A stretch of DNA of 50,975 nt from a phage (PZ871100.1), one strand, 5' to 3'; shown: positions 32,609 to 48,884, counted from the stretch's first letter. Notes: generated by a model not told the origin, from the sequence alone. Numbers and translations are program-made.

Positions 32609-32640
32609 TATTTCATCAAAACGAACAAGAGGAAAATAAA

Positions 32641-32820
32641 ATGGTTGTTTACGATCCACGCGCTTTTAAAATTGCTCAAGAAGTTTCACGCGAATCTGTT
32701 GCTGGCGGTTCGGTTAACGGCTATCAGTTTGATTGGTCGGCAGCAATGACCCTGCTTAAGGTTGCATATGGTCACGCGCCAATTGAAACAGCGGAGGAAT
32801 ATTATAAGCATGAAGGTTGA
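32641..32820 (+). CDS. hypothetical small protein (59 aa)
   Basis: Below ORF-track cutoff; ATG 32641 with AGAGGA RBS downstream of promoter unit. Confidence 0.4.
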   Translation: MVVYDPRAFKIAQEVSRESVAGGSVNGYQFDWSAAMTLLKVAYGHAPIETAEEYYKHEG

Positions 32821-33052
32821 ACAAGGTAGGCAGGCCGTATGGGATCACGCAAAGGAATGCGGGATAGCAGAAGACATAGCCAGGATAGCGAAATATTTTG
32901 ATATTGCTGACATAAGCATTATCAGCGGCGACAAAATGACATTTCTCAATGAACGACCGCGCAAGATGCATCGCGTACCAGCAATACCAACAAAGATTGA
33001 TTTCAAAGAGGCTATGGCGAAAATTCGCGAGCCGCGCAAATACTACAAATGA
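32810..33052 (+). CDS. hypothetical protein
   Basis: ATG 32810 with GGAGGA RBS; 80 aa. Confidence 0.4.
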   Translation: MKVEQGRQAVWDHAKECGIAEDIARIAKYFDIADISIISGDKMTFLNERPRKMHRVPAIPTKIDFKEAMAKIREPRKYYK

Positions 33053-33150
33053 GGATTATTATCATGTGGCGTTTGTTACTTTTGCCCTTACCTGTTATGA
33101 TGGCGATCTCTATTGTATATGTTGTCATAATGAGATAAGGAGAATTTTTG

Positions 33151-34266
33151 ATGAAGCAAATCAAAATCACAGATGAACAATTTATCAATGAGCGCAAGCA
33201 GGGAAAGACATATAAGCAGATCGCTAGTGAGTATGGCATGAACGTTCGCAGCATTGAGCGACGCGCGGCACGATTAGCAAAGCAAGGTAAAGTTACAACC
33301 ATCGGATCACCTGGTTTTGGTGTTACTGGAGAATCAAAGCTAATTGATAAAGATGGCAATGTGGTTATGACATGGATTAAGACAAGCAAAGACCGCGAAC
33401 AGTTAGAAGCATTAATGCAGGCCGCTATGGATGCATTTAGCGAAGAGGTTCCTCGACTTGATCCACAGCCAGAATCACAAAAGAATTATAGCGAGACGCT
33501 ATCACTGTATCCGATCTTTGACATGCACTTGGGCGCAATGGCGCATAAGCATGAATGCGGCGAGAATTGGGATACAGCAACAGCAGAGCGCGTAATGAAT
33601 AATTTCATTGATTATTCCATCCAGTGTGCGCCGGATAGTGAAAAAGCTGTTTTGCTGATTGGTGGTGATATGCTTCACAGCGACGGACTGGAAGCGGTGA
33701 CACCTGCAAGCGGTCACGTATTGGATCAAGATAGTAGATATGCAAAACTTGTTTATGTTGCCATCCGGTCAGTGCGTCGAGCAATTACAAAGCTGTTATC
33801 AAAACACAAAAACGTCGAGATTCAGATCATTGAAGGCAACCACGACCAAAGCGGCATGATCTGGTTGCGCGCAGCAATGGCGGCAGCATATGAGAATGAG
33901 CCACGAGTGCATGTTGATGTGTCTCCGCGAGTGGTTCATCACACACAATATGGCAAAACGTTCCTGGCATACCATCACGGGCATACTATCCGCAAACCTG
34001 AAACATTGCTAATGATGTGCGCGGCAGACTGGCGCGAAGACTTCGGCAATTCAAAAATGATGTATGCTCACGTAGGGCACTGGCATCATCAAACAGTAAC
34101 TGAAACAAGCCTGGGAATTGTTGAAGTGCATAGCACTATGGCGGCAAAAGATGCATATGCTGCGCGCGGTGGATGGCGTTCTCGTCGCCGTGCGGCTGTT
34201 ATTGTTTATGATAAAGAATACGGAGAAGTAGGGCGATTTATGCATTATCCAGAAATGGCTGGTTGA
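33151..34266 (+). CDS. HTH domain fused to calcineurin-like metallophosphoesterase
   Basis: N-terminal HTH-like KTYKQIASEYGMNVRSIERRAARL; phosphoesterase motifs DMHLG, GGDMLHSDG, EGNHDQ. Confidence 0.6.
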   Translation: MKQIKITDEQFINERKQGKTYKQIASEYGMNVRSIERRAARLAKQGKVTTIGSPGFGVTGESKLIDKDGNVVMTWIKTSKDREQLEALMQAAMDAFSEEVPRLDPQPESQKNYSETLSLYPIFDMHLGAMAHKHECGENWDTATAERVMNNFIDYSIQCAPDSEKAVLLIGGDMLHSDGLEAVTPASGHVLDQDSRYAKLVYVAIRSVRRAITKLLSKHKNVEIQIIEGNHDQSGMIWLRAAMAAAYENEPRVHVDVSPRVVHHTQYGKTFLAYHHGHTIRKPETLLMMCAADWREDFGNSKMMYAHVGHWHHQTVTETSLGIVEVHSTMAAKDAYAARGGWRSRRRAAVIVYDKEYGEVGRFMHYPEMAG

Positions 34267-34309
34267 ACTTTTAATCATTAAAATATAAATATAAATCATC
34301 AATTTAATT

Positions 34310-34339
34310 GGGCGTGGCATTTTGCTTCGCCCTTTTTTT
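34310..34339 (+). terminator. terminator-like hairpin before lysis cassette
   Basis: GGGCG...CGCCC hairpin then TTTTTTT. Confidence 0.5.
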
Positions 34340-34412
34340 ATTCCTTTTTGTGCGTTCAATGGTTAGGATACAATCAATTAATTGTTGACTTTTATCTACA
34401 GGAGATCTAATC

Positions 34413-34628
34413 ATGAAAGATTTTTTAAACGCTGCAACTTCCGGCACTGGCGGCGCGTCAATCACTGGCGCGGTAACTGGTCAAACAACTATTGCAATAG
34501 CCAGCTTCGTTTTGATGGCTGCATTTGGTATGTGGGGCGCTTATCTTCGCTGGCGTGATAGTAAGGCGCTACGTGACGCGCTTGAATGCGGTGATATTAA
34601 GAAAGCTATTGAGATCAGAGGTAAATAA
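34413..34628 (+). CDS. holin (putative, single TM)
   Basis: 71 aa; one hydrophobic helix; charged C-terminus; directly upstream of endolysin with ATGA overlap. Confidence 0.6.
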
Positions 34629-35116
34629 TGAGTATAAAACAAAGAGTGACAGCTGCGGCTTTTGGCGTTGCTCTTGCCCTTACTTCTCCGCTACTGGAGG
34701 AAATAGAAGGAGTAAAACATAAGCCGTACAAAGATATTGCTGGGATATGGACGGTTTGCGCCGGAATAACTGGACCTGACGTAATACCAGGCAAAACGTA
34801 CACACAGAGAGAGTGCGATGCGCTACTGGCAAAGCATATCAAGATCGCAAAGGATGAAGTTGATAAACGTGTGAAGGTTGAGATTCCTGATACAATGCGC
34901 GCAGCGATGTATTCATTCACATACAATGCTGGCACTGGTGCTTTTAGAAATTCAACCATGCTTAAGCTGATTAATAACGGTCGTTATATGGAAGCGTGCA
35001 ATCAGTTATGGCGATGGACAAAATACACCAATCCAAAAACAGGAAAGAAAGAAACGTCTAAAGGACTGCGCAACCGCCGCGCGGTGGAATTTAAATATTG
35101 CATTAAGGATCTGTAA
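34628..35116 (+). CDS. endolysin (phage lysozyme, GH24-like)
   Basis: 162 aa; [26 protein letters not shown] signature region. Confidence 0.8.
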
Positions 35117-35118
35117 TC

Positions 35119-35517
35119 ATGAGAAAGTTATCAGCAATCGCGATCGCTGTTATTTTGTCTGGATGTTCAAGCGTTACGCCACTGACCGGATTAATCGGTA
35201 GTAAGCCGGAAATCACAGCACAGGCAGGAGCGGAGAACGTAAAGCAGACCGTTGGCGTTACCGCAAAGCAGGACACCAGCACGAAACAGGAAACTACAAT
35301 AAAGGAATCTGCGGTTGATAAGGTGGACACTTCCAGCAAGAAGGATTTCACTACGTCAACCATTCAGGCAAACACCATCAAGGCTGATAAAATCCAGGTT
35401 GTGCAGGGTGAGCAAAGGAAGTGGTACGATCCTATAATCTATTGCGCTGCAATTTTCAGTGGTCTTTTGACTATGCTTTACTTTTCCTACCGCAAAGATA
35501 ACAAAAAGGAGGCTTAA
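35119..35517 (+). CDS. unimolecular spanin (T1 gp11-like)
   Basis: 132 aa; N-terminal lipobox ILSGC and C-terminal TM helix; last gene of lysis cassette. Confidence 0.7.
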   Translation: MRKLSAIAIAVILSGCSSVTPLTGLIGSKPEITAQAGAENVKQTVGVTAKQDTSTKQETTIKESAVDKVDTSSKKDFTTSTIQANTIKADKIQVVQGEQRKWYDPIIYCAAIFSGLLTMLYFSYRKDNKKEA

Positions 35518-35533
35518 CGCCTCCTTTATTTTT
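35508..35533. terminator. terminator at end of lysis cassette (convergent junction)
   Basis: GGAGGC ttaac GCCTCC then TTTATTTTTAT; spanin stop codon in loop. Confidence 0.55.
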
Positions 35534-35750
35534 ATGCATCGGGCCATTCGTGGGAATGGTTTGTTAATTGTTGGTTTTCTTGAAACTCAATATCGTAATT
35601 ACCAGCCATCACGCGCATTGCCATGTTTTCAACATATTCTACAGCTTGCTCACGAGTCAATGAGTCGGCTGGGAACTTTGTAGGAATTTCAGTAGTAGTT
35701 CCGTTTTCATGCTTGACAACCAGCGCCACGGTGAAAAATTTGTTGCTCAT
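35532..35750 (-). CDS. hypothetical protein
   Basis: 72 aa; preceded by promoter unit and conserved leader. Confidence 0.45.
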   Translation of the reverse strand: MSNKFFTVALVVKHENGTTTEIPTKFPADSLTREQAVEYVENMAMRVMAGNYDIEFQENQQLTNHSHEWPDA

Positions 35751-35786
35751 GGTAACTTCCTTTTGTTGTTTCGTTTCGATGAAACA

Positions 35787-35830
35787 AATATACCCGATAC
35801 GAGATCGGGAGTTTTAACAAAAAGTGCTAT
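35787..35830 (-). promoter_or_regulatory. conserved-box promoter-like unit
   Basis: Minus-strand box (plus 35811-35830), spacer inverted repeat CCCGAT...ATCGGG, TATATT (plus 35787-35792), leader CATCGAAACGA. Confidence 0.6.
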
Positions 35831-35947
35831 TCAATACGCTTTACAGTAACCAACAAAACGCCGTCCTCATCACACAAATTATGCTCTGATATATCAAGCG
35901 CTCGCATGTCAGAATGAATGAGCGTTAACATTGCGTGCATGAAGTCG

Positions 35948-36340
35948 TCATGTGAGATTGAACTTACGGCGCAGAACTTCAATATTTTGTCTATTAGCAT
36001 TTGACGTAAACAATTCTTCATCGCTCATTTCTCCGATCCTTAAAACATCCCTTACCCATTCGTTTTGCATACCTTCCAGACTGTAAAGTTCAAACGAGAA
36101 AGGTCGATTTGCAGACCCTTTCTTACACCAGAACTTTCCACCAACTCCATCAAGATAACCAGCGGTCATCATTCTTGCGCAAAACTCTTTTGAAACGGCG
36201 GTTGCAAACATTCTCGGCGTAAATCCTGCGGCCCTTGCGAGCCGCTCACATTCTCTATGCTGAAATATAAATTTTGCGATATGTTGACGTGTAAACCATT
36301 CGAATGACTCACACCAGCGATACAGATCCAGAAGAAACAT
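35948..36340 (-). CDS. hypothetical protein
   Basis: 130 aa; start 2 nt after the upstream stop. Confidence 0.45.
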   Translation of the reverse strand: MFLLDLYRWCESFEWFTRQHIAKFIFQHRECERLARAAGFTPRMFATAVSKEFCARMMTAGYLDGVGGKFWCKKGSANRPFSFELYSLEGMQNEWVRDVLRIGEMSDEELFTSNANRQNIEVLRRKFNLT

Positions 36341-36342
36341 AA

Positions 36343-37926
36343 TTACCCCAGCAATGTTGGATTTACGAAAACAACGCCATTAATCACACAAATATAATTT
36401 CTTTCTTCAAGCATCGGCAGCAGTTGCGTTTCCATACGCTTCATTACGCCAGCCTGACCAACAAACGGCTTAACTTTTCGTGCAGCCTCATATATGGCGC
36501 GAACATTCAAGATTCCCTTGTTAGCCTTACCGTGTCGAGTGATAATCTCGATTAGTTTACCCATTTCAGCATCATCACCAGCATAGCCAGAAGCGTTGGC
36601 GGCGCTAATGTATGTTTTGCTCAACTCGCTAAACATCAGCAGTGCTTCCTGAACGGTTTCAACCTCAATCTCTTTCGACTTTTGAGGGTATCCGCCAGGA
36701 TTAAACCAATTGCGGATAGTGTGCAAAACCGAAGCAATCCTGATCACCTGCTTATCCATTTTGCCAAGCGCACCGCGCAGCATTGTATGCGAATACTTTC
36801 CGCCATCGGCAAGGTGCGGTTCCATCTCCTGACGAGCCATGTTAAGAACTCGCATTGCGGATTTGCTGATCTTAAGCTGGATGTTTGATTCACTCATGAT
36901 GTTATGGATCAGCTTGAAATATTGGCTTTTCAGTTCTCCATCAACAGGTTCATAAGTAGAATCACCGTTATCATCAACAAACTTTCTACGGCCTAAAAAT
37001 GATTCCTCACGCACAAGCAAATAACGCTCACTTACACCGATACCGCGAGATCCTGCATCCATGATGGCATTGATTGTTTCATCCTGGGCAATTACCGCCA
37101 TACAGCCAAGAGCTTTAAAACTCATATTGTTGTCAGCGTTTGCACGAGCTATAGAAACATGACCATGATCCCATGCTTTTAGCACAAGTTCGCTGTTGGT
37201 TTTACGTTCGCTATTGGCATATGTCAGACCTAAAAGGCTGTTAATACTTGTTGCCTCGTCTGAAATCACAGCAAAGTTACCCTGGCGATTGTTGATTCTT
37301 GCAAGTCCTTCCGGCGTTGTGTCGGACACAGGGAAAACGATGTCACACATCTTTTCCAGTTTTTCTTCCAGATCTTCTTTCTCCTGGTACAGGGATTCCA
37401 TATCAGCGCCGGAGCGCTCGCTTTTCATCTCTTTTGCAAGACCTGCCAACTTTGCCTGAATCTTTTTTCTTTCCTTCTTTCTCTGATCGTTAATTCTTTC
37501 CACTTCTGCAACCATTGGAGCAAGTGCCAGGCTGTTAACGGCAGATTTACCAGTTGAAGGAGGCTGGCTTGTGACAACATAAAGAGCGGTCGGCTGATCC
37601 GTTCCGTGATACTCAACAGTGAAGCGTCCAAGCATTGCAGCAGACACACATCCGATAAAATGCATATATGCCGATGATTCAGGAAATTGAACAGATCGAG
37701 CAATATTGCGCGCCAGCTTACCAACAATATCAACATCATTGCCGAGAGAAATTACAGGGTAGCGATCGTTTCCGTTATTAACATCATTAACCTCACCCCA
37801 AAAGCTGGACGATTGACGGTATCCGTTTGCCTGAATGGACACGCGCACAGGAGACAATCCTTGTGCATCAGCTAATTCGATAATTTGTTTTGGTGTTAGT
37901 TTATTGGTTTCAAACGAAAAATTCAT
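36343..37926 (-). CDS. P-loop NTPase, replication-associated (DUF3987-like, putative)
   Basis: ATG 37926 with AAGGAG RBS; Walker A-like PPSTGKS; acidic coiled region; own promoter unit. Confidence 0.4.
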   Translation of the reverse strand: MNFSFETNKLTPKQIIELADAQGLSPVRVSIQANGYRQSSSFWGEVNDVNNGNDRYPVISLGNDVDIVGKLARNIARSVQFPESSAYMHFIGCVSAAMLGRFTVEYHGTDQPTALYVVTSQPPSTGKSAVNSLALAPMVAEVERINDQRKKERKKIQAKLAGLAKEMKSERSGADMESLYQEKEDLEEKLEKMCDIVFPVSDTTPEGLARINNRQGNFAVISDEATSINSLLGLTYANSERKTNSELVLKAWDHGHVSIARANADNNMSFKALGCMAVIAQDETINAIMDAGSRGIGVSERYLLVREESFLGRRKFVDDNGDSTYEPVDGELKSQYFKLIHNIMSESNIQLKISKSAMRVLNMARQEMEPHLADGGKYSHTMLRGALGKMDKQVIRIASVLHTIRNWFNPGGYPQKSKEIEVETVQEALLMFSELSKTYISAANASGYAGDDAEMGKLIEIITRHGKANKGILNVRAIYEAARKVKPFVGQAGVMKRMETQLLPMLEERNYICVINGVVFVNPTLLG

Positions 37927-37953
37927 TGGTGATAACTCCTTTTTGATGCGGCA

Positions 37954-37997
37954 ATAATACCGCACCAATGCTACCCGCATTTAACAAAAAATGCTAT
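37954..37997 (-). promoter_or_regulatory. conserved-box promoter-like unit upstream of P-loop NTPase gene
   Basis: Minus-strand ATAGCATTTTTTGTTAAAT, 18 nt, TATTAT (plus 37954-37959). Confidence 0.55.
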
Positions 37998-38215
37998 TTG
38001 ATCCGCTCTATGCTAACTAAGATTTTTTCTGGTTCCTTTGCACTATGGCAATGCGCGGTTACAGAATCAACAAAATCAAAGTAAAGTGATTTGTGATATG
38101 AGAATCCAATCAGCCACCCAACCATCGTTTTCTTTATTGGCCTGACTATATCGCCAGGCTTAAAGGTTTTTGTTGCCGAATGAGTCACCTTATAGCGATG
38201 TTCAGCCTTGATCAC
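37994..38215 (-). CDS. hypothetical protein (GTG start)
   Basis: GTGA overlap with upstream stop. Confidence 0.3.
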   Translation of the reverse strand: MIKAEHRYKVTHSATKTFKPGDIVRPIKKTMVGWLIGFSYHKSLYFDFVDSVTAHCHSAKEPEKILVSIERIK

Positions 38216-38598
38216 TTATACATAGCCTCAAACAAATGACAGCCACCAGCGGAAAATCCAACTTCTTCGCGGTACAGCGTCCAGCGGTCGCCAGCTTCAT
38301 CAAACACATAACCAGCAACAGCGCCAAGCGCGCGGCCTTGCTCAATCTGGTAGCGCTTTCCTTCTTTGAAATGCTTTTTGCAAGGGATCTTGTGATCTAC
38401 AAAGGTGCATTTAATTGTTTTTGTCTTGATATGACGATAGTCAGACTCAACCGCGTTTTGCCACTTGCTACCATTTGTAATGCTCTTTACCTGGAATTGT
38501 TCCAACTCGATCACATCATCGCTACCAGCAATTTTTTCGTATACGGTTTTATAGCGCCCGTTCATCAAAACGTTGGTTTTATTGCAGATAACTTTCAT
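38212..38598 (-). CDS. hypothetical protein
   Basis: 128 aa; AAGGAG RBS; promoter unit upstream. Confidence 0.45.
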   Translation of the reverse strand: MKVICNKTNVLMNGRYKTVYEKIAGSDDVIELEQFQVKSITNGSKWQNAVESDYRHIKTKTIKCTFVDHKIPCKKHFKEGKRYQIEQGRALGAVAGYVFDEAGDRWTLYREEVGFSAGGCHLFEAMYK

Positions 38599-38629
38599 CG
38601 TTTATTTCTCCTTTCGTTTCGGTGAAATG

Positions 38630-38673
38630 ATTATGCCAGGCTTTTACACCTGGCTTTTAACAAAAAGTGCTAT
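38630..38673 (-). promoter_or_regulatory. conserved-box promoter-like unit
   Basis: Minus-strand box (plus 38654-38673), spacer inverted repeat GCCAGG...CCTGGC, CATAAT (plus 38630-38635), leader CACCGAAACGA; methyltransferase-like stop TAG in box. Confidence 0.6.
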
Positions 38674-39380
38674 TTTGCGTTTGCTTCAAAGACGGCGCGA
38701 GCAAAGCCGCGCGGAGTGAGGGAGCGGATCATCTTTGTGCGCGATGATTTTCCGCCAGTTTTGGCCCAACCAGGATTATCCTTGTCACCCTCTTTCGGAA
38801 GGATTGTTGAGCGCGGAGGAATAACAAATCCGTTTCCAGTCCAAAGGCATGTTTTCTTAAAGTACCGATCCCGCGCCGGAATAATATCAGGGAAGTCGGG
38901 ATGCTTATCATCTTCCTGCAGATAGCCAGCATAATCGCACGGATGGAACGTATAATCAGGCTTACGCCATAACGTTGACAGCTTGCCTACAGGATTTTCG
39001 ATCATGTAAGGAACGCCGAAATAATCAGCGATATGCGCCGCGATTCTGCAAGTGTCGGCGGCCTCATCCTGGAAAGAGGGATTCTCAAGGCGTTTTTTGG
39101 ACCAATGGCGAGATCCGCTATTTGCAAGGTCAGTGCACGGCGGAAATGCCATAATGAAATCAGGCTTGCCCCAATTTTCAAGTTTTGCGGTATATTTGAA
39201 TAGCTCATCAATCCACACATTAACGTAAAAAATATTATCATGGATTATGCGCACTGATTGGTAATCTCCATGATCTGCATCATCGTAATTAAAGCAAATG
39301 CATTTATATCCAGCATCAGCCCAATCTTTAACGGCTTTACCAGATCCATCAAACAAAGAGAATATTAAACCTTTATACAT
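38670..39380 (-). CDS. DNA C5-cytosine methyltransferase-like protein (putative)
   Basis: Motif I-like FSLFDGSG, motif IV-like FPPCTD, motif VI-like MIENPVG; stop TAG inside promoter box. Confidence 0.5.
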   Translation of the reverse strand: MYKGLIFSLFDGSGKAVKDWADAGYKCICFNYDDADHGDYQSVRIIHDNIFYVNVWIDELFKYTAKLENWGKPDFIMAFPPCTDLANSGSRHWSKKRLENPSFQDEAADTCRIAAHIADYFGVPYMIENPVGKLSTLWRKPDYTFHPCDYAGYLQEDDKHPDFPDIIPARDRYFKKTCLWTGNGFVIPPRSTILPKEGDKDNPGWAKTGGKSSRTKMIRSLTPRGFARAVFEANAK

Positions 39381-39389
39381 TTCATCACC

Positions 39390-39724: not shown

Positions 39725-39771
39725 TTATTCACCATTGATAAAATGGGAGGCGGCAACCTCCCATTGATTAA

Positions 39772-39999: not shown

Positions 40000-40029
40000 T
40001 ATGCAATCCTCATTATATTTGGTTTGGTA

Positions 40030-40455: not shown

Positions 40456-40649
40456 TACACAACCTCCATAATAGTATTGAATCCACGCAGTTTGAAAGCA
40501 TTTCCATGTTTAACAACGTTCCATGTCAGGCCGGAGTGATACGCAACCATATCCTCAAGATCAATGGTGATGATAGCGCCTTTTTTAAAGATTCCTTTCT
40601 CGTGAGTGGTGTCACGCTGTACAACTTTAACATCAACTTGATTTTCCAT
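40455..40649 (-). CDS. hypothetical protein
   Basis: 64 aa; promoter unit and conserved leader (CATCGACAACGA...GAGGA) upstream. Confidence 0.45.
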   Translation of the reverse strand: MENQVDVKVVQRDTTHEKGIFKKGAIITIDLEDMVAYHSGLTWNVVKHGNAFKLRGFNTIMEVV

Positions 40650-40680
40650 TTTTAAATCCTCGTTCGTTGTCGATGCGCTT

Positions 40681-40724
40681 AATATACCAATCAGAGGCGC
40701 ATAGGTTTTAACAAAAAGTGCTAT
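40681..40724 (-). promoter_or_regulatory. conserved-box promoter-like unit
   Basis: Minus-strand box (plus 40705-40724), 18 nt, TATATT (plus 40681-40686), leader CATCGACAACGA. Confidence 0.55.
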
Positions 40725-41011: not shown

Positions 41012-41153
41012 AGTCAACAACTCCAAATTCGTTAACAATTTGCGCCTTATAGAAGCCGCCATTTTTCGCAAGGTTGTAGCATGCCGCCACAGTTTCAAAT
41101 TCGCGCACTTCCGGCTTGCTGTTTTCGTGTTCCCAGGTAATCAGAGTAACCAT
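41001..41153 (-). CDS. hypothetical small protein (50 aa)
   Basis: Not in ORF track; GAGGA RBS; leader near-identical to that of 40455..40649. Confidence 0.35.
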   Translation of the reverse strand: MVTLITWEHENSKPEVREFETVAACYNLAKNGGFYKAQIVNEFGVVDYEF

Positions 41154-41186
41154 TTTTAAATCCTCGTATTCGTTGTCGATGTGTGT

Positions 41187-41230
41187 AATGTACAGGAATA
41201 CGAGGATTGAGTTTTAACAAAAAGTGCTAT
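41187..41230 (-). promoter_or_regulatory. conserved-box promoter-like unit
   Basis: Minus-strand box (plus 41211-41230), 18 nt, TACATT (plus 41187-41192), leader CATCGACAACGA. Confidence 0.5.
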
Positions 41231-41497: not shown

Positions 41498-41510
41498 CTT
41501 TATTTCTCCT

Positions 41511-41756: not shown

Positions 41757-42025
41757 TTCTTGATCTCCTCAGCAATAAACTTCAGGACTTTGCGCAAAAA
41801 CACTTCATTATTGATGGTCGCTGGCAATTCTTCTTTTACTTCTTGCGGCAGGTAAACGTTGCCATGCCAGGTTAAGCAATCGTAGTTGATACGATAAGAG
41901 CAAAGCCACTCGCAATCGTTATCCGCTTCCCAAATGCAGAGTTGCAGAACATCGCCGAAATTCTCAACAGTCAGGTCCAGACCATGACGCTTGGCGAAAT
42001 TGAAAGTGGTTTTGCTGATGTTCAT
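41753..42025 (-). CDS. hypothetical protein
   Basis: 90 aa; AGGAG RBS; promoter unit and conserved leader upstream. Confidence 0.45.
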   Translation of the reverse strand: MNISKTTFNFAKRHGLDLTVENFGDVLQLCIWEADNDCEWLCSYRINYDCLTWHGNVYLPQEVKEELPATINNEVFLRKVLKFIAEEIKK

Positions 42026-42064
42026 TTGCTTTCTCCTGATTGGTATCTCGTTTCGATGTATGCA

Positions 42065-42107
42065 TTATGACAAATACAGTCAGGCACGTTTTAACAAAAA
42101 GTGCTAT
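42065..42107 (-). promoter_or_regulatory. conserved-box promoter-like unit (first of the minus small-gene block)
   Basis: Minus-strand box (plus 42088-42107), 17 nt, CATAAT (plus 42065-42070), leader CATCGAAACGA. Confidence 0.6.
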
Positions 42108-42600: not shown

Positions 42601-42707
42601 CAGCCACACAGCCAAAAAACATGATGAGGATTCTTTTGAAATCATGCACTTAACTGCGAATTTTGTTTCCGCGCAATCTCCACACGTATAGCGAACAATT
42701 AGAACGC

Positions 42708-42737
42708 TTGACATAGGCGCGGCGTGGTGGCAACATT
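42708..42737 (+). promoter_or_regulatory. possible sigma70-like promoter (perfect TTGACA, weak -10) with adjacent inverted repeat
   Basis: TTGACA 42708-42713; weak -10 CAACAT/AACATT about 17-18 nt downstream; GGTGG...CCACC inverted repeat overlaps. Confidence 0.3.
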
Positions 42738-42774
42738 GCAACCACCAAAAACAGAGCAAATAGGAGTTACACCC

Positions 42775-43236
42775 ATGACCATGACAAGCAAGGAATTTTG
42801 CGATATGTTGCGAGTTAATGCAGCCTCACTAGCTAACGGGGATGTTAGCGAACTGCAAATCAAGGAGCTTGACTTGCAATGTAATATTGCGCCGGAAGAC
42901 TTGAGGAAAATTAACGCCTCATACATCCGAACGATTATGAATCGAACGCCGGAGGTGAAAGCCGTTGGCGTGGTGAAGGTTGAACGCGTTCGAGGCGATG
43001 CTGACATTCCTGATTGTTATCGCGTAACAATTAACCAGAATCCAAAGCGCCGCTTGCTGACAGATGAAGAACTGCCAAAACTTGAAAGTAAGTGGCGAGC
43101 AAAGTTTATTGCTCAACTGCTTAAAACACAGCCGCGAATCAGCGATCTGGAAGGTGAGCGCCTGGAAGGTGCGGCAATCGCACTTGAGCGAATGAATGAA
43201 ATGCTTAACGATATGGTAAAGATGGAGGATGAATAA
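42775..43236 (+). CDS. hypothetical protein (first gene after noncoding region B)
   Basis: ATG 42775 with AGGAG RBS; 153 aa. Confidence 0.45.
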   Translation: MTMTSKEFCDMLRVNAASLANGDVSELQIKELDLQCNIAPEDLRKINASYIRTIMNRTPEVKAVGVVKVERVRGDADIPDCYRVTINQNPKRRLLTDEELPKLESKWRAKFIAQLLKTQPRISDLEGERLEGAAIALERMNEMLNDMVKMEDE

Positions 43237-43496
43237 TGACTAAGGCATTAATTGGAGTTTTGATTGCAATCGCTACCCTGACCGGATGCGAAAAGGCATC
43301 GGAATCAACGGTTGTAGCAGGCGTGGAGTCAGATTTCAAAGTCGGTCGCCTGTTCACTGTTGACGGATGCACAGCATACAGATTCTATGATAACGGTCGC
43401 GCGATCTATTACACCAATTGCAAAGGCGCAACGAATAGCACGCGCAACAGCGGAAAGTACATAATGCACCAGCAAGTCACAACAGATATTGAATAG
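43236..43496 (+). CDS. small lipoprotein (second Cor/Llp-like candidate)
   Basis: 86 aa; signal peptide and lipobox LTGC; GGAGG RBS; TAATG overlap. Confidence 0.5.
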   Translation: MTKALIGVLIAIATLTGCEKASESTVVAGVESDFKVGRLFTVDGCTAYRFYDNGRAIYYTNCKGATNSTRNSGKYIMHQQVTTDIE

Positions 43497-43536
43497 CACT
43501 TTTTGTTAAAACGCCAGGTGCGAATCCTGGCATAAT
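43493..43536 (+). promoter_or_regulatory. conserved-box promoter-like unit
   Basis: Box 43493-43512, spacer inverted repeat GCCAGG...CCTGGC, CATAAT 43531-43536, leader CATCGAAACGA. Confidence 0.6.
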
Positions 43537-43569
43537 AGCCTCATCGAAACGAGATTGAGGAAAACAAAA

Positions 43570-43755
43570 ATGGCACGTCGCATCACCAAAGACCTTAAAG
43601 TCCTGAACAAAGAAAACGTAGTTAAAATCCTGGTTATCTGGGGATACAACGAAGAAGCAGCAAAGCAGAAGGTAGAGGCAGGTTATGACCTGGCTGTAAA
43701 AGCAATGCCAAACGACGACGCAAAAGGCATTGCAAACTATGTGGCTTTCTTTTAA
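43570..43755 (+). CDS. hypothetical protein
   Basis: 61 aa from ATG 43570; GAGGAAAA RBS after promoter unit. Confidence 0.4.
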   Translation: MARRITKDLKVLNKENVVKILVIWGYNEEAAKQKVEAGYDLAVKAMPNDDAKGIANYVAFF

Positions 43756-43770
43756 TTAGCAGGTGAATAA

Positions 43771-43956
43771 ATGAAAACGAAATTAGTCCATAAATCAGAA
43801 ATCAAGATCGGCGATACTGTGATTCACAACGGCGAGCTTAGAACGGTTGGCAAAGAGTCAATAAGCCACGATGAATTTATGGGGATCTTGTTGTTCGGTG
43901 ACTCTTATCGTCTTGGTTATAAAATGGTTGAGCTTGTGGAAGAGGTAAAATTCTAA
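43771..43956 (+). CDS. hypothetical protein
   Basis: 61 aa; RBS AGGTGA. Confidence 0.4.
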   Translation: MKTKLVHKSEIKIGDTVIHNGELRTVGKESISHDEFMGILLFGDSYRLGYKMVELVEEVKF

Positions 43957-44000
43957 ATAGCACTTTTTGTTAAAACTTAAAAACGATAACCAGGCATAAT
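43957..44000 (+). promoter_or_regulatory. conserved-box promoter-like unit
   Basis: Box 43957-43976, 18-nt spacer, CATAAT 43995-44000. Confidence 0.55.
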
Positions 44001-44054
44001 AAATCACATAGGGCGGCACGGCGTCGCCCGGTAAACCAATCAGGAGAAAGCACC

Positions 44055-44945
44055 ATGTTAAAACTTGCTGACATTAAATTCCCGATCACCTTCGAATCTC
44101 GCGGCGTTGGTCATTTCATGTTTACCGATGAGAAGACATGCACTAAGTTTAACGAATACGGAAGTCCAAACGCTTCAACAATGGAGGTTGAACACTTCAT
44201 TGAAGCGCACAATAAACACTACAACTCACTCAGAGACTACGGTTACGCAATGCCAGGATACACATGTTTTCACTACAAGCCATATAAGGGTCAGGTGTTA
44301 CCAGTGCGCTCACCGGAACGCGCAGAGATTCCGATGGTCAATATGAAAACGTGCGACTATAAAAAATTGTGGTGCTTAAGCGTGGATAACATCAAGTATC
44401 CGATCGTATTCCGCACGGTTGGTAACTCAACGATTCGCTATACGTCACCAGACAACGGCGTTTATAGCGATGGTCAGAAATCAGAGTTGAAAGTTGATTT
44501 CTTTGTCAATGGTCACAACAAATTCAATCCACACAATGAAGAAGATAAGGTGTACTACGTGGAAGATATTACAAAACACTTGTTTGGAGAAACACCATTC
44601 GGCTACGGGAAGACGTCAATTCAACAAATCATTGGCGAGGAGATCCACAAGGCAGCCGTTGAAATGAAAGCGCCTGGAGGCTGGCGTATTGATAAGAGCG
44701 CCTTTGCTTATCAAGAAATCGTAACGCAGGGCGCTATTGAAGACATGCCAGTTGCCGCCACGCTAAAAGGCGTTCAGCTTGATGACGGCGTGTGGTATGA
44801 ATTAACAGCTAAGCCAAAGACGATCGAGATTCATGATGATGTTGTTATTCTTCTGCTTCATTACGGTAGCGCAAAAAACCGTGCCGTTGCTGGCGAGATT
44901 AGCATCAAGCGCGGAACGATGGTTAAGTGGAAGGTGAAAGTGTAA
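44055..44945 (+). CDS. hypothetical protein with internal tandem duplication
   Basis: 296 aa; two similar ~100-aa segments (IKFPITFESRGVG / IKYPIVFRTVGNS; EHFIEAHNKH / DFFVNGHNKF); AGGAG RBS. Confidence 0.5.
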   Translation: MLKLADIKFPITFESRGVGHFMFTDEKTCTKFNEYGSPNASTMEVEHFIEAHNKHYNSLRDYGYAMPGYTCFHYKPYKGQVLPVRSPERAEIPMVNMKTCDYKKLWCLSVDNIKYPIVFRTVGNSTIRYTSPDNGVYSDGQKSELKVDFFVNGHNKFNPHNEEDKVYYVEDITKHLFGETPFGYGKTSIQQIIGEEIHKAAVEMKAPGGWRIDKSAFAYQEIVTQGAIEDMPVAATLKGVQLDDGVWYELTAKPKTIEIHDDVVILLLHYGSAKNRAVAGEISIKRGTMVKWKVKV

Positions 44946-44988
44946 ATAGCACGAATTGTTAAAACTCAAATGTGGGGCCAGGTATAAT
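44946..44988 (+). promoter_or_regulatory. conserved-box promoter-like unit (variant box ATAGCACGAATTGTTAAAAC)
   Basis: Box 44946-44965, TATAAT 44983-44988 inside inverted repeat GGCC...GGCC. Confidence 0.55.
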
Positions 44989-45018
44989 GGCCTCACTTTC
45001 AATGAAGGAGATAAAACT

Positions 45019-45249
45019 ATGTACATTAACAAGAAGATGAAATGCATTTCCGTTAACTATGGTTGCGCTGGCATGTTCAAGCCTGGCGAAATCTATATGG
45101 CGCAAAAGTTGAAATCATCAACCGGATCCTTTTACGTTAGTAATAGTAAGGGGCATCGCATGTTCCTGAACGGTGGTGAAGGTACTAATGTTATGGCACA
45201 CGCTATGGTAATTGCTGAATTTGAGGAAGTGAAAGATGAAAACAAATAA
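45019..45249 (+). CDS. hypothetical protein
   Basis: ATG 45019 with AAGGAG RBS after promoter unit. Confidence 0.4.
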   Translation: MYINKKMKCISVNYGCAGMFKPGEIYMAQKLKSSTGSFYVSNSKGHRMFLNGGEGTNVMAHAMVIAEFEEVKDENK

Positions 45250-45457
45250 GCGCGTCAAGCACAGGTTTACTGATAACCACGGCGACGCGATCGATGTATA
45301 CAAGTTCGGCGATCGCGTTTTTATTGACGGCACGTTTGAAGGTGGGAGCAGTCCGGATTTTAGGTCGATACTCACCGTTGACCAGGTGCGAAAGCTGGCG
45401 GATAAGTTAAATGATCTGGCAGATGAAATCGAATACAAGCAAATTCATTTTAATTGA
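45236..45457 (+). CDS. hypothetical protein
   Basis: 73 aa; GAGGAAG RBS. Confidence 0.4.
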   Translation: MKTNKRVKHRFTDNHGDAIDVYKFGDRVFIDGTFEGGSSPDFRSILTVDQVRKLADKLNDLADEIEYKQIHFN

Positions 45458-45468
45458 TAGGTTTGATA

Positions 45469-46008
45469 ATGAAAAAATACGAATTTGAACTTTGGGGCAG
45501 CAAATACCATTTTTCAACGAGCAAGCCGATTGTTATCGTTGACCTGGACGGAACGTTATCAGACGGAACGCATCGCTTACACCTTCTTCCGACAGAAGAT
45601 TTGCACCTTACAGAAAGCTGGTCTGAGTTCAATAAGGCGGCTGTTGGCGATTCGCCGATTAAGAGCACGGTTGCAGTGGTTAACGGTTTGTGGATGTCAG
45701 GATTTGCCATCGTTATCCTGACCGGACGCAGCGATGAAGTGATGGAGGACACCTGCAAATGGCTTAACGAAAACGGCATCAAGTACGATGCGTTAATCAT
45801 GCGCCGCAAGGAAGACAATCGCAAAGACACAATAATCAAAGAGGAAGTCTTGCGCGCTATCGGACTGGAAAACATTGTGTGCGCTTTTGATGATTCTCCG
45901 AACGTGGTTAAGCACTTCCGCAGCCTGGGAATCACAACCTATCAGGTAACGGAATACGACAAGCCACATAATCATATCCAATCGCATGGCGTGGAGGAAT
46001 TGAAATGA
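45469..46008 (+). CDS. HAD-superfamily phosphatase (nucleotidase or polynucleotide 3-phosphatase-like)
   Basis: Motif I IVIVDLDGTL (DxDxT), later ILTGR and FDDSPN motifs. Confidence 0.6.
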   Translation: MKKYEFELWGSKYHFSTSKPIVIVDLDGTLSDGTHRLHLLPTEDLHLTESWSEFNKAAVGDSPIKSTVAVVNGLWMSGFAIVILTGRSDEVMEDTCKWLNENGIKYDALIMRRKEDNRKDTIIKEEVLRAIGLENIVCAFDDSPNVVKHFRSLGITTYQVTEYDKPHNHIQSHGVEELK

Positions 46009-46166
46009 CATGGATTCTATTTGTGATTATCACAAGCTACAATTCAGCCGCAATTGAGTCTCGCGAGTTCCACGGTGAATCAAGATGTCAGGCCGCGAGA
46101 GAGCAAGTAATTTTGCATATGTCAGATAACGATAAAGAAGTTGAAGTATTCTGTGTTCGTAAATAG
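46005..46166 (+). CDS. hypothetical small protein (53 aa, hydrophobic N-terminus)
   Basis: Not in ORF track; ATGA overlap with phosphatase stop; stop TAG inside promoter box. Confidence 0.35.
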   Translation: MTWILFVIITSYNSAAIESREFHGESRCQAAREQVILHMSDNDKEVEVFCVRK

Positions 46167-46206
46167 CACTTTTTGCAAAAACAGATTATCGGGCTTGCTG
46201 TATAGT
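46163..46206 (+). promoter_or_regulatory. conserved-box promoter-like unit (variant ...TTGCAAAAAC)
   Basis: Box 46163-46182, TATAGT 46201-46206, inverted repeat GGGCTT...AAGCCC. Confidence 0.55.
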
Positions 46207-46236
46207 AAGCCCATCTACAAAAACGAGGATTAAATC

Positions 46237-46500
46237 ATGGTTAATAAAGTTGAGTTTTTCAAAGCGGTAGACAAGATTGACGGCGCGCCAAGTTTCTTTG
46301 CTATCCATTCCATTGACGGCGAAGACGTTGCATACAACGTGATTAGTCGAGACGGTATATCAAAACTTAGTGACCTGGTGGGTTATATTGTGGCGAACGG
46401 GAAATGTGCATGGCCCGATTCACCACGAGAGCCGCGCCGCCGCGACATGCAAAATCCAGTTCTGCTTTACACTCTGGTAATTGAAGGAGTCAACAAATGA
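46237..46500 (+). CDS. hypothetical protein
   Basis: 87 aa; GAGGA RBS after promoter unit. Confidence 0.4.
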   Translation: MVNKVEFFKAVDKIDGAPSFFAIHSIDGEDVAYNVISRDGISKLSDLVGYIVANGKCAWPDSPREPRRRDMQNPVLLYTLVIEGVNK

Positions 46501-46682
46501 TTTGGTTACTTGTATTTTTAGTGGTTTTCTTTTATATTTCAGGCTTATTCATCTTCCGAGCGCTGGTGAAAACATGCGATTGCACTGATAAAGATCAGCC
46601 TCTTGTTCTGATGTTCTGGTTTGTGTGGTTTTGGGTGGCGCTTTACCAGATTGTACGGGATGAAAGCGGCTTTAAGTGGTGA
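46497..46682 (+). CDS. small membrane protein (2 predicted TM)
   Basis: 61 aa; two hydrophobic helices; ATGA overlap. Confidence 0.4.
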   Translation: MIWLLVFLVVFFYISGLFIFRALVKTCDCTDKDQPLVLMFWFVWFWVALYQIVRDESGFKW

Positions 46683-46876
46683 TTCTTACTATAGCGCATT
46701 CACGCAGTGCGCTATGTTGAGATAACAACATGAGATCATGAAGATGCGAAACTTCGAAAAAATCGTATCCAAGAAGAAGCGATACAGCTACTACGAGCAC
46801 CAAGAGATGAATCAACGCTATCGCAAAAAGCGCCAGCGAAAAGGTAAAAATTCCAGTAAACATGGAGAAAATCAAT

Positions 46877-47467
46877 ATGAAACGCGACATTATCATTCTT
46901 AACGGACCGCCAGGAGTTGGCAAAGATACGCTTGCGGCATACTTAACTGGCCATCGTTACGCAGCCGTTAAAGCGTCGTTTAAGCAACCGATGTTTGATA
47001 TTGCATTCTCCATGCTTGGCGTTTACCTATATGACGAGTTCATTGATCTGTATAACGACCGCGAGCAGAAAGAAAAGCCTCAAGCAATCTTGCAAGGCAA
47101 GTCTCCGCGACAATTCATGATCTGGATTAGCGAAGAAGTCATGAAGCCAGCTTTTGGCGAGCAATATTTTGGGAATCGCATGGTTGAGCAAGTACACGAG
47201 ATGTACAGAGATTTAGCTGTTGTAATTAGTGATGGCGGATTCCCTGAAGAAATCAAACCGCTCGTTAAGGCAGGCCATGAAGTGCACATTTGCCGACTGC
47301 ATCGCGAAGGATTCACGTTTGATGGCGATTCGCGAAACTATATTGACCTGAACGGATACCATCACCGAGTCAAGCATTACGACTTCACAATGATTGATGG
47401 CGAGCCAGAAAAGACTGTTGACGAGATCATCAAAACGGTGCAGTGGAAACACACAAAGATTGAATAG
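46877..47467 (+). CDS. P-loop nucleotide kinase (dNMP kinase or polynucleotide kinase-like)
   Basis: ATG 46877 with GGAG RBS; Walker A NGPPGVGKDT. Confidence 0.55.
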   Translation: MKRDIIILNGPPGVGKDTLAAYLTGHRYAAVKASFKQPMFDIAFSMLGVYLYDEFIDLYNDREQKEKPQAILQGKSPRQFMIWISEEVMKPAFGEQYFGNRMVEQVHEMYRDLAVVISDGGFPEEIKPLVKAGHEVHICRLHREGFTFDGDSRNYIDLNGYHHRVKHYDFTMIDGEPEKTVDEIIKTVQWKHTKIE

Positions 47468-47507
47468 CACGAATTGCTAAAAGCGGGGCGCAATGCCTCG
47501 CTATAAT
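47464..47507 (+). promoter_or_regulatory. conserved-box promoter-like unit (variant ATAGCACGAATTGCTAAAAG)
   Basis: Box 47464-47483, TATAAT 47502-47507. Confidence 0.55.
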
Positions 47508-47537
47508 GCAAACACCAATCAACGAGAGGAAATCATC

Positions 47538-47939
47538 ATGGTAGAGTTAAACAACATCCGCATTGGAACAAAATTTCGCGTAACCTGGGCAGATAAATAT
47601 TGCGGAGTTAGCAAGGGCCAGGTTGTTACTGTGGATAGTATTTATCGCGGATGCAGCAAAGACTTTCGCCGCCCACGCATCACGAATGGCTATATCATTA
47701 CTCGCCGTTTTGGCTTTGATCATTATTGCGTAGTGGCGACTCAAGGAGTTTTGATTGAGCTTCAGCGAATCAGCGATCATCGCGGCTGTCATGTCAAAAC
47801 AACGAAGATACCATCTCAGCGATCGCGATACGATGCGCGCAGGATGCGCAGGCTTGCACGAAACGCGATCAAGTTCAAAAAGCATGGTGGTAACTTTTAC
47901 CGAATGTACAAAGGGATTGCGCGAAATGCTGGAAAATAA
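47538..47939 (+). CDS. hypothetical protein (basic C-terminus)
   Basis: ATG 47538 with GAGAGGAAA RBS after promoter unit; 133 aa. Confidence 0.4.
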   Translation: MVELNNIRIGTKFRVTWADKYCGVSKGQVVTVDSIYRGCSKDFRRPRITNGYIITRRFGFDHYCVVATQGVLIELQRISDHRGCHVKTTKIPSQRSRYDARRMRRLARNAIKFKKHGGNFYRMYKGIARNAGK

Positions 47940-48057
47940 CAACAACGCAACAAATCCAAAGCCGCCATTTGATTTTCATGAAATCATGATTGTGTTATTC
48001 TTGATTCTCTTAGTTGTTTATTCAGTGAGGGCCGCAATATGGTTTTTAATGCACTAA
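47926..48057 (+). CDS. small membrane peptide (43 aa)
   Basis: Not in ORF track at this start; hydrophobic helix IMIVLFLILLVVYSV. Confidence 0.25.
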   Translation: MLENNNNATNPKPPFDFHEIMIVLFLILLVVYSVRAAIWFLMH

Positions 48058-48302
48058 AACGAATCTTTAAACCTGAATACCGGATCGTTGCTTGCACAGA
48101 ATGCAAGATTTATTATCTGCAACGCCGCCGCGTTATTAGTGGGGATTGGGAATATCTGACTGATGATGCTTTCGGCTTTTGGGCTATGGAGTTCAATAGC
48201 TACAGCGAAGCGCGTGAATACGCTAAAAAGTTGCACAAGTTCAGACCTTACAAGCTGCGTTTGCTGGTTGTCAAAAAATGCGATGTGTGGGATCACGAAT
48301 GA
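48039..48302 (+). CDS. hypothetical protein
   Basis: 87-aa ORF. Confidence 0.35.
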   Translation: MVFNALKRIFKPEYRIVACTECKIYYLQRRRVISGDWEYLTDDAFGFWAMEFNSYSEAREYAKKLHKFRPYKLRLLVVKKCDVWDHE

Positions 48303-48478
48303 AAAGAGTAATTATCATTTTTATTGCCATTATCGCTGGTTGCTACCTGGCTTATAATTATAGCGGCATTGTTGAGTCAATCGGCGGATTGATTATCTTC
48401 ATGGCTGGCGGGTATGCTGGCTATTGTGATGGATTCGAAAACGGAAAGCGTTACATGCTGACCGGAAAAAAGAAGTAA
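48299..48478 (+). CDS. small membrane protein
   Basis: ATG 48299 in ATGA overlap; two hydrophobic segments. Confidence 0.35.
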   Translation: MKRVIIIFIAIIAGCYLAYNYSGIVESIGGLIIFMAGGYAGYCDGFENGKRYMLTGKKK

Positions 48479-48521
48479 TGTTAACCGCGCCGCTTCGGTG
48501 GCGCTAAAAGGAGGAAACAAA

Positions 48522-48809
48522 ATGGCTAAAAGCAATCGTAAAATGTTGATTAACGCATTCGAAAAGGCGGCGCTTGAGCGTGGTTGGAATGACTCATTTC
48601 ACACAGCAAACTGTATCCGCCATTACGGATTCAAGAATTGCCGATCCTGGGCGCGTGAAATGGCTTCATGGTATGATCTTGATGCGCATTACCTTGATAT
48701 GGATTGCGCCCTTGTTGAAATGATTGAGCAGGCCGCACTAGAGGATCGACCATTAACGCAATCTGATTTTGACGATTTTGTGCGCGATGAAATTTATTAT
48801 ATGAGCTAA
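48522..48809 (+). CDS. hypothetical protein
   Basis: ATG 48522 with AAGGAGG RBS; 95 aa; stop adjacent to promoter box. Confidence 0.4.
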   Translation: MAKSNRKMLINAFEKAALERGWNDSFHTANCIRHYGFKNCRSWAREMASWYDLDAHYLDMDCALVEMIEQAALEDRPLTQSDFDDFVRDEIYYMS

Positions 48810-48852
48810 TAGCACTTTTTGTTAAAACTTCCGCGAGGGCATTTGTTAAAGT
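48809..48852 (+). promoter_or_regulatory. conserved-box promoter-like unit
   Basis: Box 48809-48828, 18-nt spacer, weak hexamer TAAAGT 48847-48852, leader TTGAAGCGAAACAGAGGAAA. Confidence 0.45.
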
Positions 48853-48884
48853 GTCCTCATTGAAGCGAAACAGAGGAAATCAAA

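Follow-up and report, generated by a model that had tools for sequence, protein, structure and literature searches.

A conserved leader motif as the probable transcription start of a repeated, PeSL-like promoter cassette in a T1-like phage

The phage DNA PZ871100.1 (50,975 nucleotides; we refer to this whole stretch as the window) possesses a set of repeated intergenic cassettes whose short leaders begin with nearly the same sequence just downstream of a -10 hexamer. We propose, with a probability of roughly 70%, that the shared sequence, which takes the forms CATCGAAACGA, CATCGACAACGA, CATCAAAACGA, and CACCGAAACGA, marks where transcription begins (C at -1, A at +1) at a recurring sigma-70-type promoter and supplies roughly the first ten bases of its transcript, the promoter being embedded in cassettes that resemble the PeSLs of T4-like phages, i.e., elements that combine a host-type promoter with a stem-loop. 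A preliminary description of the window had noted the similarity of these leaders and had offered a shared initiation signal, an RNA-level regulatory or processing site, or a translation enhancer as explanations for it; overall, this interpretation is partly supported by the data reported here. Between 30 and 51 kb, the window shares about 94% identity with Escherichia phage herni and Shigella phage pSf-1, both T1-like siphoviruses of the Drexlerviridae.

The cassettes stretch from a stop codon to an ATG, are oriented along the direction of transcription, and cluster among small ORFan genes. Their parts follow one another in a set order: a 19-nt box, a variable 19-nt spacer that can form a hairpin, a -10 hexamer (CATAAT, TATATT, TATAGT, and similar sequences) that is often preceded by TG, five nucleotides, a CA dinucleotide as the predicted start, the leader, a Shine-Dalgarno (SD) site, and the ATG. 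After the CA, the leader continues with TCGA(A/C)AACGA and an A-rich, U-poor stretch. In those cassettes of the window that bear the leader, the distance from the beginning of the box to the ATG amounts to about 74-85 nt. The box (TAGCACTTTTTGTTAAAA) is present in 17 copies when up to three mismatches are allowed (0.13 expected), and a degenerate form of it (ATAGCACnnnTTGnTAAAA) detects 20 sites in the window and 21 in T1. Sixteen of the 20 copies in the window fall within 31-49 kb; an SD site and an ATG come after each one that was read in this region. The cassettes of the window, and one match to the motif outside of them, are as follows.

32565..32643, plus strand: cassette; box 32565-32583; hairpin GCCCGAC..GTCGGGC, terminator-like; -10 CATAAT 32603-32608; predicted start A 32615; leader CATCAAAACGA 32614-32624; ATG 32641.
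35748..35830, minus strand: cassette; box 35812-35830; hairpin CCCGAT..ATCGGG; -10 TATATT 35787-35792; predicted start 35780; leader CATCGAAACGA 35771-35781; ATG 35750-35748.
37924..37997, minus strand: cassette with the shortened leader CATCAAAAAGGA at 37937-37948; -10 TATTAT 37954-37959; predicted start 37947; hairpin GCGG..CCGC around the -10.
38596..38673, minus strand: cassette; box 38655-38673; hairpin GCCAGG..CCTGGC; -10 CATAAT 38630-38635; predicted start 38623; leader CACCGAAACGA 38614-38624; ATG 38598-38596.
40647..40724, minus strand: cassette; box 40706-40724; -10 TATATT 40681-40686; predicted start 40674; leader CATCGACAACGA, longer by one base, 40664-40675; ATG 40649-40647.
41151..41230, minus strand: cassette; box 41212-41230; -10 TACATT 41187-41192; predicted start 41180; leader CATCGACAACGA, longer by one base, 41170-41181; ATG 41153-41151.
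42023..42107, minus strand: cassette; box 42089-42107; -10 CATAAT 42064-42069; predicted start 42057; leader CATCGAAACGA 42048-42058; ATG 42025-42023.
43493..43572, plus strand: cassette; box 43493-43511; hairpin GCCAGG..CCTGGC; -10 CATAAT 43531-43536; predicted start 43543; leader CATCGAAACGA 43542-43552; ATG 43570.
46163..46239, plus strand: cassette with the diverged leader CATCTACAAAAACGA at 46212-46226; -10 TATAGT 46201-46206; predicted start 46213; hairpin GGCTT..AAGCC around the -10.
48809..48887, plus strand: cassette with a leader of a different family, CATTGAAGCGAAACAGAGG, at 48858-48876; -10 TAAAGT 48847-48852; predicted start 48859; ATG 48885.
34507-34517, minus strand: match to the variant CATCAAAACGA outside any cassette, with neither box nor -10 upstream; apparently located in coding sequence.

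When one mismatch is tolerated, CATCGAAACGA is found six times in the window; dinucleotide-shuffled sequences contain it 1.46 times on average, and none of 100 shuffles reached at least six occurrences. Five of the six matches reside in promoter cassettes, and the match at 34507-34517 (minus strand) probably arose by chance outside of the promoter system. In every cassette of the window, the motif begins exactly 5 nt past the -10 hexamer, and it is thus anchored to this hexamer in a way that is far beyond chance. These data bear out the observation that near-identical leaders follow directly downstream of the -10 sequences. The coordinates originally assigned to them were approximate and deviate by 0-21 nt from the actual positions of the motif; that given as 35750, for instance, denotes a start codon. 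The example reported at 48860 belongs to the CATTGAAGCGAAACAGAGG family of leaders, which also occurs in T1 and in other genomes; only the CAT at the start and CGAAAC are common to both families.

For an analysis of the promoter geometry, 222 unique cassettes were aligned on their -10 hexamers; they stem from T1 and from viral-contig fragments that had been retrieved by the box pattern alone. A non-redundant set comprises 165 cassettes whose downstream coding sequences are less than 70% identical to each other. The distance between the box and the -10 hexamer is 19 nt in 185 of the 222 cassettes. All 222 retained cassettes possess an A at position 2 and a T at position 6 of the hexamer, two positions to which the -10 finder assigns heavy weight; the most common hexamers are TATAGT, CATAAT, TATTAT, and TATAAT. 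An extended -10 is indicated by a G at -14 in 170 cassettes (77%) and a T at -15 in 98 of them (44%). The start region is marked by a C at -1 (74%) and an A at +1 (84%), followed by T (53%), C (47%), G (48%), three A residues (62-69% each), and C (44%), and the frequency of T falls to 5-10% between +4 and +18. A consensus scan for promoters with a -35 hexamer at 17 ± 1 bp recovers almost none of the cassettes, since they lack such a hexamer at 16-18 bp; the TTGnTA of the box is situated 21-22 bp upstream of the -10.

The RNA polymerase of E. coli normally initiates at the seventh base after the -10 hexamer and prefers a pyrimidine-purine step at this site. In the non-redundant set, CA occupies -1/+1 in 108 of the 165 cassettes and a pyrimidine-purine pair in 139, at exactly the sixth and seventh positions after the hexamer. 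An ACGA that ends at +10 or +11 is present in 51 cassettes (3.2 expected from the composition of the leaders), and with up to two mismatches 46 cassettes match CATCGAAACGA, 14 match CATCGACAACGA, and 11 match CACACCAAACGA. The spacing between the motif and the SD site varies from about 1 to 14 nt among the cassettes of the window. Since the motif keeps its distance to the -10 while that to the SD site changes, it belongs to the promoter and occupies the site at which the E. coli enzyme would normally begin transcription. Of the explanations offered in the preliminary description, it is therefore the shared initiation signal with which these findings agree: the motif extends from -1 to +10 in an extended -10 promoter of the sigma-70 type.

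The motif is conserved among relatives of the phage. T1, a member of a different subfamily, carries CATCAAAACGA, CATCGACAACGA (twice), CACCAAAACGA, and CATAGAAACGA at the same position, and TLS, Rtp, and further contigs likewise possess it there. We compared orthologous promoters directly; a substitution profile within orthologues was dropped because the nine clusters of at least three sequences among the viral contig fragments were too few for it. In these comparisons, the spacer and the discriminator are replaced beyond recognition, and the box, the -10, and the leader persist. The orthologues of the gene that follows the cassette at 41230 (minus strand), for example, retain CATCGACAACGA, CAACGAAACGA, CATCGAAACGA, or CATTGAAATGA. 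Absence of the element from homologous promoters of related genomes had been named beforehand as an outcome that would speak against it; we found the leader to be kept at these promoters.

The box itself has been described before. An intergenic 21-base repeat, aaATAGCACnnnTTGnTAAAA, is known from TLS, T1, Rtp, and Rogue1, where it is oriented along the direction of transcription and located about 76 nt before start codons (PMC11447400). In that study, only three sigma-70-like promoters were reported, and the function of the repeat was listed as an open question, with a stoperator, an enhancer site, or an UP element as the options (PMC11447400). aaATAGCACnnnTTGnTAAAA corresponds to the upstream box of the cassettes studied here, with consensus, orientation, and distance to the start codon all matched in the window. 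In the published work, however, the repeat was treated by itself, without the extended -10 at a fixed distance, the CA start, or the leader consensus. Since an extended -10, followed by a CA start and a conserved leader, lies at a constant distance of 19 nt from the repeats, we interpret these repeats as the upstream elements of the main promoter class of the phage.

Hairpins are a pervasive feature of the region between box and start. Eighty-seven percent of the 165 cassettes fold at -4 kcal/mol or lower between -33 and +2; the mean is -10.5 kcal/mol versus -4.2 kcal/mol in shuffled sequences, and 73% have a z-score below -2. The 19-nt spacer almost always constitutes one or both arms of the hairpin (e.g., 32584-32602, 43512-43530, and 46182-46211 in the window; loci L001-L121), and the arms change in sequence between orthologous promoters with their complementarity being preserved. 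Many hairpins enclose the -10 in their loop and end exactly at -1 (GGGGTA..TATAGT TACCCC/ATCG, the slash separating -1 from +1). In other cases, the hairpin precedes the -10 and a T-rich tract comes after it; the T1 record annotates three of these as terminators, and one in the window is terminator-like. Because such a tract follows only some of the hairpins, the remaining ones are unlikely to be simple intrinsic terminators.

This arrangement is reminiscent of the PeSLs (Arbiol 2010, PMC2839356; Comeau 2014, PMC4122927). PeSLs join a promoter of the host type to a stem-loop, for which five positions are possible, their promoter and attenuator activities have been demonstrated, and recombination crossovers have been mapped between the -10 and the SD site or ATG (PMC2839356). 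PeSLs and our cassettes have traits in common: the stem-loop can overlap the -10, separate it from the -35, or immediately precede the start, and both types of element are concentrated among small ORFan genes. PeSLs mediate gene shuffling via mini-circles, and in our data different types of cassette stand upstream of orthologous genes. However, PeSLs possess a near-consensus -35 together with a -10, whereas the cassettes analyzed here have only the -10, with the 19-nt box in place of the -35 at a fixed 19 nt from the extended -10; a consensus for the start or the leader goes unmentioned in what these accounts make accessible. Moreover, our cassettes are found in a T1-like siphovirus. Since a near-consensus -35 is missing and the virus family is a different one, we regard the cassettes as PeSL-like rather than as PeSLs proper.

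The motif is not specific to T1-like phages. We scanned viral contigs for TANNNT-N5-CATCGAAACGA; the counts that follow are those among the matches listed. Only 21 of 136 occurrences are accompanied by a T1-type box. The 99 unique matches from new loci fall into a pL family with 35 members, two with a T1-type box, and 62 others. Among these 62, a -35 hexamer with at least 5/6 agreement is present at 16-18 bp in 29%, versus 2.3% of control TANNNT sites, and a -35 (at least 4/6) combined with an SD site and ATG in 34%, versus 1.5% of control TANNNT sites in the same loci. Bacterial genomes, which served only as a control for the same pattern, yielded matches in all phyla that are mostly background (3.4% in the context of a -35 and SD-ATG); several of the best of them are prophage pL promoters of the HK639-type family.

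By BLAST, the 35-member family with the leader CATCGAAACGAAACATCGACAGCTGAGCG corresponds to the pL region of lambdoid phages of the HK639 type. Five nucleotides separate the 'putative pL' that is annotated in the HK639 record from the CATCGAAACGA downstream of it, with taatc preceding CATCGAAACGAAAC; a putL-like antiterminator RNA follows about 67 nt, and the next annotated gene about 185 nt, downstream of the motif. The transcript start CATCGAAACGAAAC of HK639/HK022-type pL is identical to that of the cassettes. In contrast, the pL leader is long and structured and contains a put RNA; the motif-bearing leaders of the window measure 21-32 nt and are unstructured, and they are therefore not put RNAs, which rules out an antiterminator of this type (about 70 nt, two stem-loops). 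Between the pL start and the putL-like RNA, HK639 (34187-34414, reverse complement) and about 35 related viral contigs share the strongly conserved stretch AACATCGACAGCTGAGCGAAGTTAGCCAGCGGCGAAGTGG; neither this stretch nor the HK639 pL leader has a match in Rfam.

Two further loci with the motif belong to T4-like myoviruses, namely Klebsiella phage KP15 and the RB16-like Citrobacter phage CfP1; cassette and leader are literally the same in them. The exact T1-type cassette of KP15 reads TAATAGCACTTTTTGTTAAAA cattctGGGGTAgctttgg TATAGT TACCC CATCGAAAC and is annotated as 'putative middle promoter; discovered using MEME'. In a second type of cassette in KP15 and CfP1, the box is 30 nt instead of 19 nt away from the -10, and the interval contains a TTGCAT -35 and a terminator hairpin. 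The sites in KP15 (GU295964) are 10042-10075 and 10386-10425. The two forms differ by 11 bp, one helical turn; these findings speak for a box that acts from one face of the helix and for a reader of the box that is not specific to the Drexlerviridae. A viral contig of 244,834 bp contains AAAAGGGTTGC-ttcg-GCAACCCTTTTT gcg TATTAT agcta CATCGAAACGA, an arrangement that agrees with how the nt-1/KVP40 PeSLs have been described.

The motif also resembles the transcribed starts of T7 A1 (CATCGAGAGG), T7 A3 (CATGAAACGA), and lambda pL (CATCAGCAGG). The annotated start of T7 A1 at 498 reads CC/ATCGAGAGGG and that of T7 A3 at 750 reads AC/ATGAAACGAC; in lambda, GATACT gagca precedes CATCAGCAGG (CATCAGC) with its A at 35582, a base that is unannotated in the record and that we take to be the pL start. 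Like the cassettes, T7 A1 (CATCGAGAGGG), T7 A3 (CATGAAACGAC), and lambda pL (CATCAGCAGGA) are strong E. coli sigma-70 promoters that start at the A of CAT, and lambda pL shares the 5 nt between the -10 and the CA. They differ from the cassettes in that they possess good -35 hexamers and no box. We know of no function that has been assigned so far to the likeness of these starts.

The spread of the cassettes raises the possibility that the leader is without a function of its own and was merely kept as cassettes were copied or exchanged by short-homology recombination, with the box and the leader serving as homology arms. The crossovers mapped in PeSLs would fit such a process, as would the presence of different types of cassette upstream of orthologous genes (e.g., 48809 in the window versus loci L072, L075, and L084), the identical cassettes in unrelated phage families (KP15 and CfP1), and the RecE-like and Erf-like recombination proteins that T1 encodes. 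In addition, the cassettes at 40724 and 41230 (both minus strand) are identical from CATCG through ATGG despite their differing spacers. On the other hand, neither homogenization nor concerted evolution of the leaders within genomes was seen: their identity is 0.455 within and 0.467 between genomes (permutation p = 0.86). Leaders are thus no more alike within than between genomes, and their similarity does not stem from recent gene conversion. The complete turnover of the spacer next to a leader that stays in place points to selection on the leader rather than to co-copying, and the motif is found behind otherwise dissimilar promoters (T7 A3, HK639 pL, and many of the type TTGACA-N17-TATAAT). 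We consider passive transmission of this kind unlikely as the explanation of the motif and plausible as a contributor to its distribution.

Folding was used to examine readings at the level of RNA. We confirmed that the leaders are unstructured and poor in U: motif-bearing leaders (39-47 nt, beginning at +1 and including 15 nt after the start codon) fold at -0.2 to -2.3 kcal/mol, versus about -5 to -7 kcal/mol for genome windows of equal length, and leaders contain 47% A and 11% T. As RNA, AUCGAAACGA folds at 0.0 kcal/mol and its variants go no lower than -0.1 kcal/mol; the variants CATCAAAACGA, CACCGAAACGA, and CATAGAAACGA break the 3-bp UCG/CGA pairing without compensating changes. A mini-hairpin UCG-AAA-CGA, which even with DNA parameters reaches only -0.8 kcal/mol, is ruled out on these grounds, and so is a stabilizing stem-loop of the ompA type, which would be a stable hairpin within a few nucleotides of the 5'-end. 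Rfam has no match at the leaders of the window. A regulatory site in the form of a structured RNA element is thus not borne out.

An unstructured 5'-end determinant would take a different form: AUCGAAACGA might mark or protect the mRNA through resistance to RppH or RNase E, or as the target of an RNA-binding protein or processing enzyme. Its place at the extreme 5'-end of the predicted transcript is what such a role calls for, the depletion of U removes typical AU-rich RNase E sites, and the host is the only factor common to the phages that carry the motif. Yet there is no structure, the pairing is broken in the variants, no Rfam family applies, and a separate complementary copy of the motif that could act in trans was not found in the window. 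With the sequence alone, moreover, this explanation is inseparable from one at the level of DNA; we judge it to be quite improbable.

A similarly low standing is given to a translation enhancer or ribosome standby site, in which the A-rich beginning of the leader would recruit the 30S subunit or protein S1 to small early genes. The A-rich, nearly unstructured leaders and the strong SD site and ATG at the end of all cassettes are in keeping with this idea, and a leader of this kind may well aid translation in a generic manner. As a specific element, however, the proposed enhancer is contradicted by the anchoring of the motif to the -10 at a variable distance from the SD site, and by HK639, in which the pL transcript starts with the motif about 185 nt ahead of the next annotated gene. 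The longest complementarity of the motif to E. coli 16S rRNA is 6 nt, and three such matches are expected by chance; an enhancer of the epsilon type that pairs with 16S rRNA is ruled out by this chance-level complementarity and the variable distance to the SD site and ATG.

The motif could also be viewed as an operator, since it contains the inverted repeat TCG-AAA-CGA and overlaps +1, a typical position for a repressor. A candidate regulator of the cassette promoters is encoded at 28513-28986 (minus strand), a 157-aa protein with a Cro/YdaS-like helix-turn-helix that scores just under the curated cut-offs for PF15943 (29.8 bits) and PF14549 (25.2 bits). Its gene sits between those for a primase and a helicase and lacks a box cassette of its own. 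The regulator is conserved in 843 phage records, and among the matches listed all have the size of Drexlerviridae genomes (about 22-53 kb); the unrelated phages that carry the motif are absent from these homologues. Among the same matches, this size range also rules out the protein as the factor behind the T4-like cassettes. The inverted repeat has only 3 bp per arm and is lost in the variants, and a protein would more plausibly bind the box, whose conservation is stronger. An operator function of the motif therefore appears highly improbable to us.

We return to the reading of the motif as a transcription start. Host RNA polymerase would open the -10 of a cassette that consists of the box at about -50 to -32, the hairpin spacer of 19 nt (in some copies presumably the terminator of the upstream gene), the extended -10, the 5-nt discriminator, and CA, and would start at the A seven bases downstream. 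A purine-rich initial sequence with no T after +2 would offer neither initiation pauses nor -10-like sequences and should allow the polymerase to escape quickly; the structure-free 5' untranslated region would leave the ribosome site exposed, and the U-poor, A-rich leader would present few AU-rich sites to nucleases. As we infer from the sequence, initiation by the sigma-70 polymerase of the host occurs at the A of CAT, and the T-free, purine-rich bases from +3 to +10 have been selected because escape limits the output of strong promoters.

Libraries with randomized +2 to +10 regions provide a comparison (PMC5961368). Templates from which the polymerase escapes slowly contain two to three T residues within the initial 7 nt; escape is slowed by TG or TA near +5/+6 and by -10-like sequences and is favored by GA or GG near +6, and CG near +5/+6 is mildly unfavorable in two of three promoter contexts (PMC5961368). 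The motif has GA at +4/+5, AAA from +5 to +7, and no T after +2. With the fast-escaping templates of published studies (T5 N25 variants and the libraries of PMC5961368), it shares a T-poor, purine-rich +3 to +10 region free of TG, TA, and -10-like sequences; none of the published consensus sequences equals it, however.

Several points weigh against our interpretation. The motif has CG at +3/+4 and +8/+9, which makes it compatible with the library data and not demonstrably optimal. The conservation of C3, G4, C8, and G9 exceeds what a U-poor and A-rich composition explains. The three main leader families cover about 28-43% of the cassettes, and others start, e.g., with TATTGAAGCA or TCGTTGAGTTAA, so that the exact sequence is not required for a cassette to function. 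With no -35 hexamer present, recognition by the unmodified sigma-70 holoenzyme is an assumption. Finally, the literature that we searched contained no experimental map of start sites for any T1-like phage (Drexlerviridae), and neither the motif nor the box as a string, nor transcriptome or start-site data of T1-like phages, led us to any relevant publication.

A few additional features of the window deserve mention. Two copies of the box lie in the late structural module of the plus strand, antisense to their neighbors (6343-6361 and 10103-10121, both minus strand, in the gaps 6324-6408 and 10035-10135), and this arrangement is conserved in T1 (15086 and 18850, minus strand) and in another contig. 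The copy at 10121 (minus strand) is followed by a -10 (TAGCAT, 10078-10083), a predicted start at 10071, and the hairpin AAAAAAAGGGGCGCAACGCCCCTTGTG, which is the reverse of a plus-strand terminator; this cassette could give rise to an antisense or non-coding RNA of roughly 40-50 nt. A variant box, AAAGCACTAATTGCTAAAA, at 28461-28529 (minus strand) upstream of the primase-like gene is followed by the long hairpin CCTGTCATGATGTTATCATCTGTCAGG, within which a TATCAT hexamer is enclosed, and then by TTTTTTG. It looks like a full intrinsic terminator that overlaps a promoter, and its counterpart in T1 is annotated as a terminator. At 50829-50927 (plus strand), Rfam reports a weak match to Trp_leader (24.9 bits compared to a gathering score of 41, E = 0.31) that adjoins a terminator-like hairpin (50902-50919); the terminator probably gave rise to this match by chance.

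The box and the concept of PeSLs were thus already known; descriptions of the extended -10 at a fixed distance, of the CA start, of a leader consensus in T1-like phages, and of the recurrence of the same start in unrelated phages were not found. As a more far-reaching and tentative idea, which we think is unlikely to hold in full, CATC-GAAAC-GAAAC might represent a transferable start module that T1-like, T4-like, lambdoid, and T7 phages have acquired independently or exchanged, and that confers a specific advantage on transcripts made by the host polymerase. This advantage would be that of a near-optimal escape sequence or of a 5' tag for a conserved host factor, and would go beyond A-rich composition or common descent. 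For the T1-like phages, our findings reframe the question of what purpose their intergenic 21-nt repeats serve. The presence of the same 11-15 transcribed bases behind strong promoters of unrelated phages would suggest that enterobacterial RNA polymerase has a preferred initial transcribed sequence; if true, this would be useful for an understanding of promoter escape and for the design of strong, well-insulated synthetic promoters.

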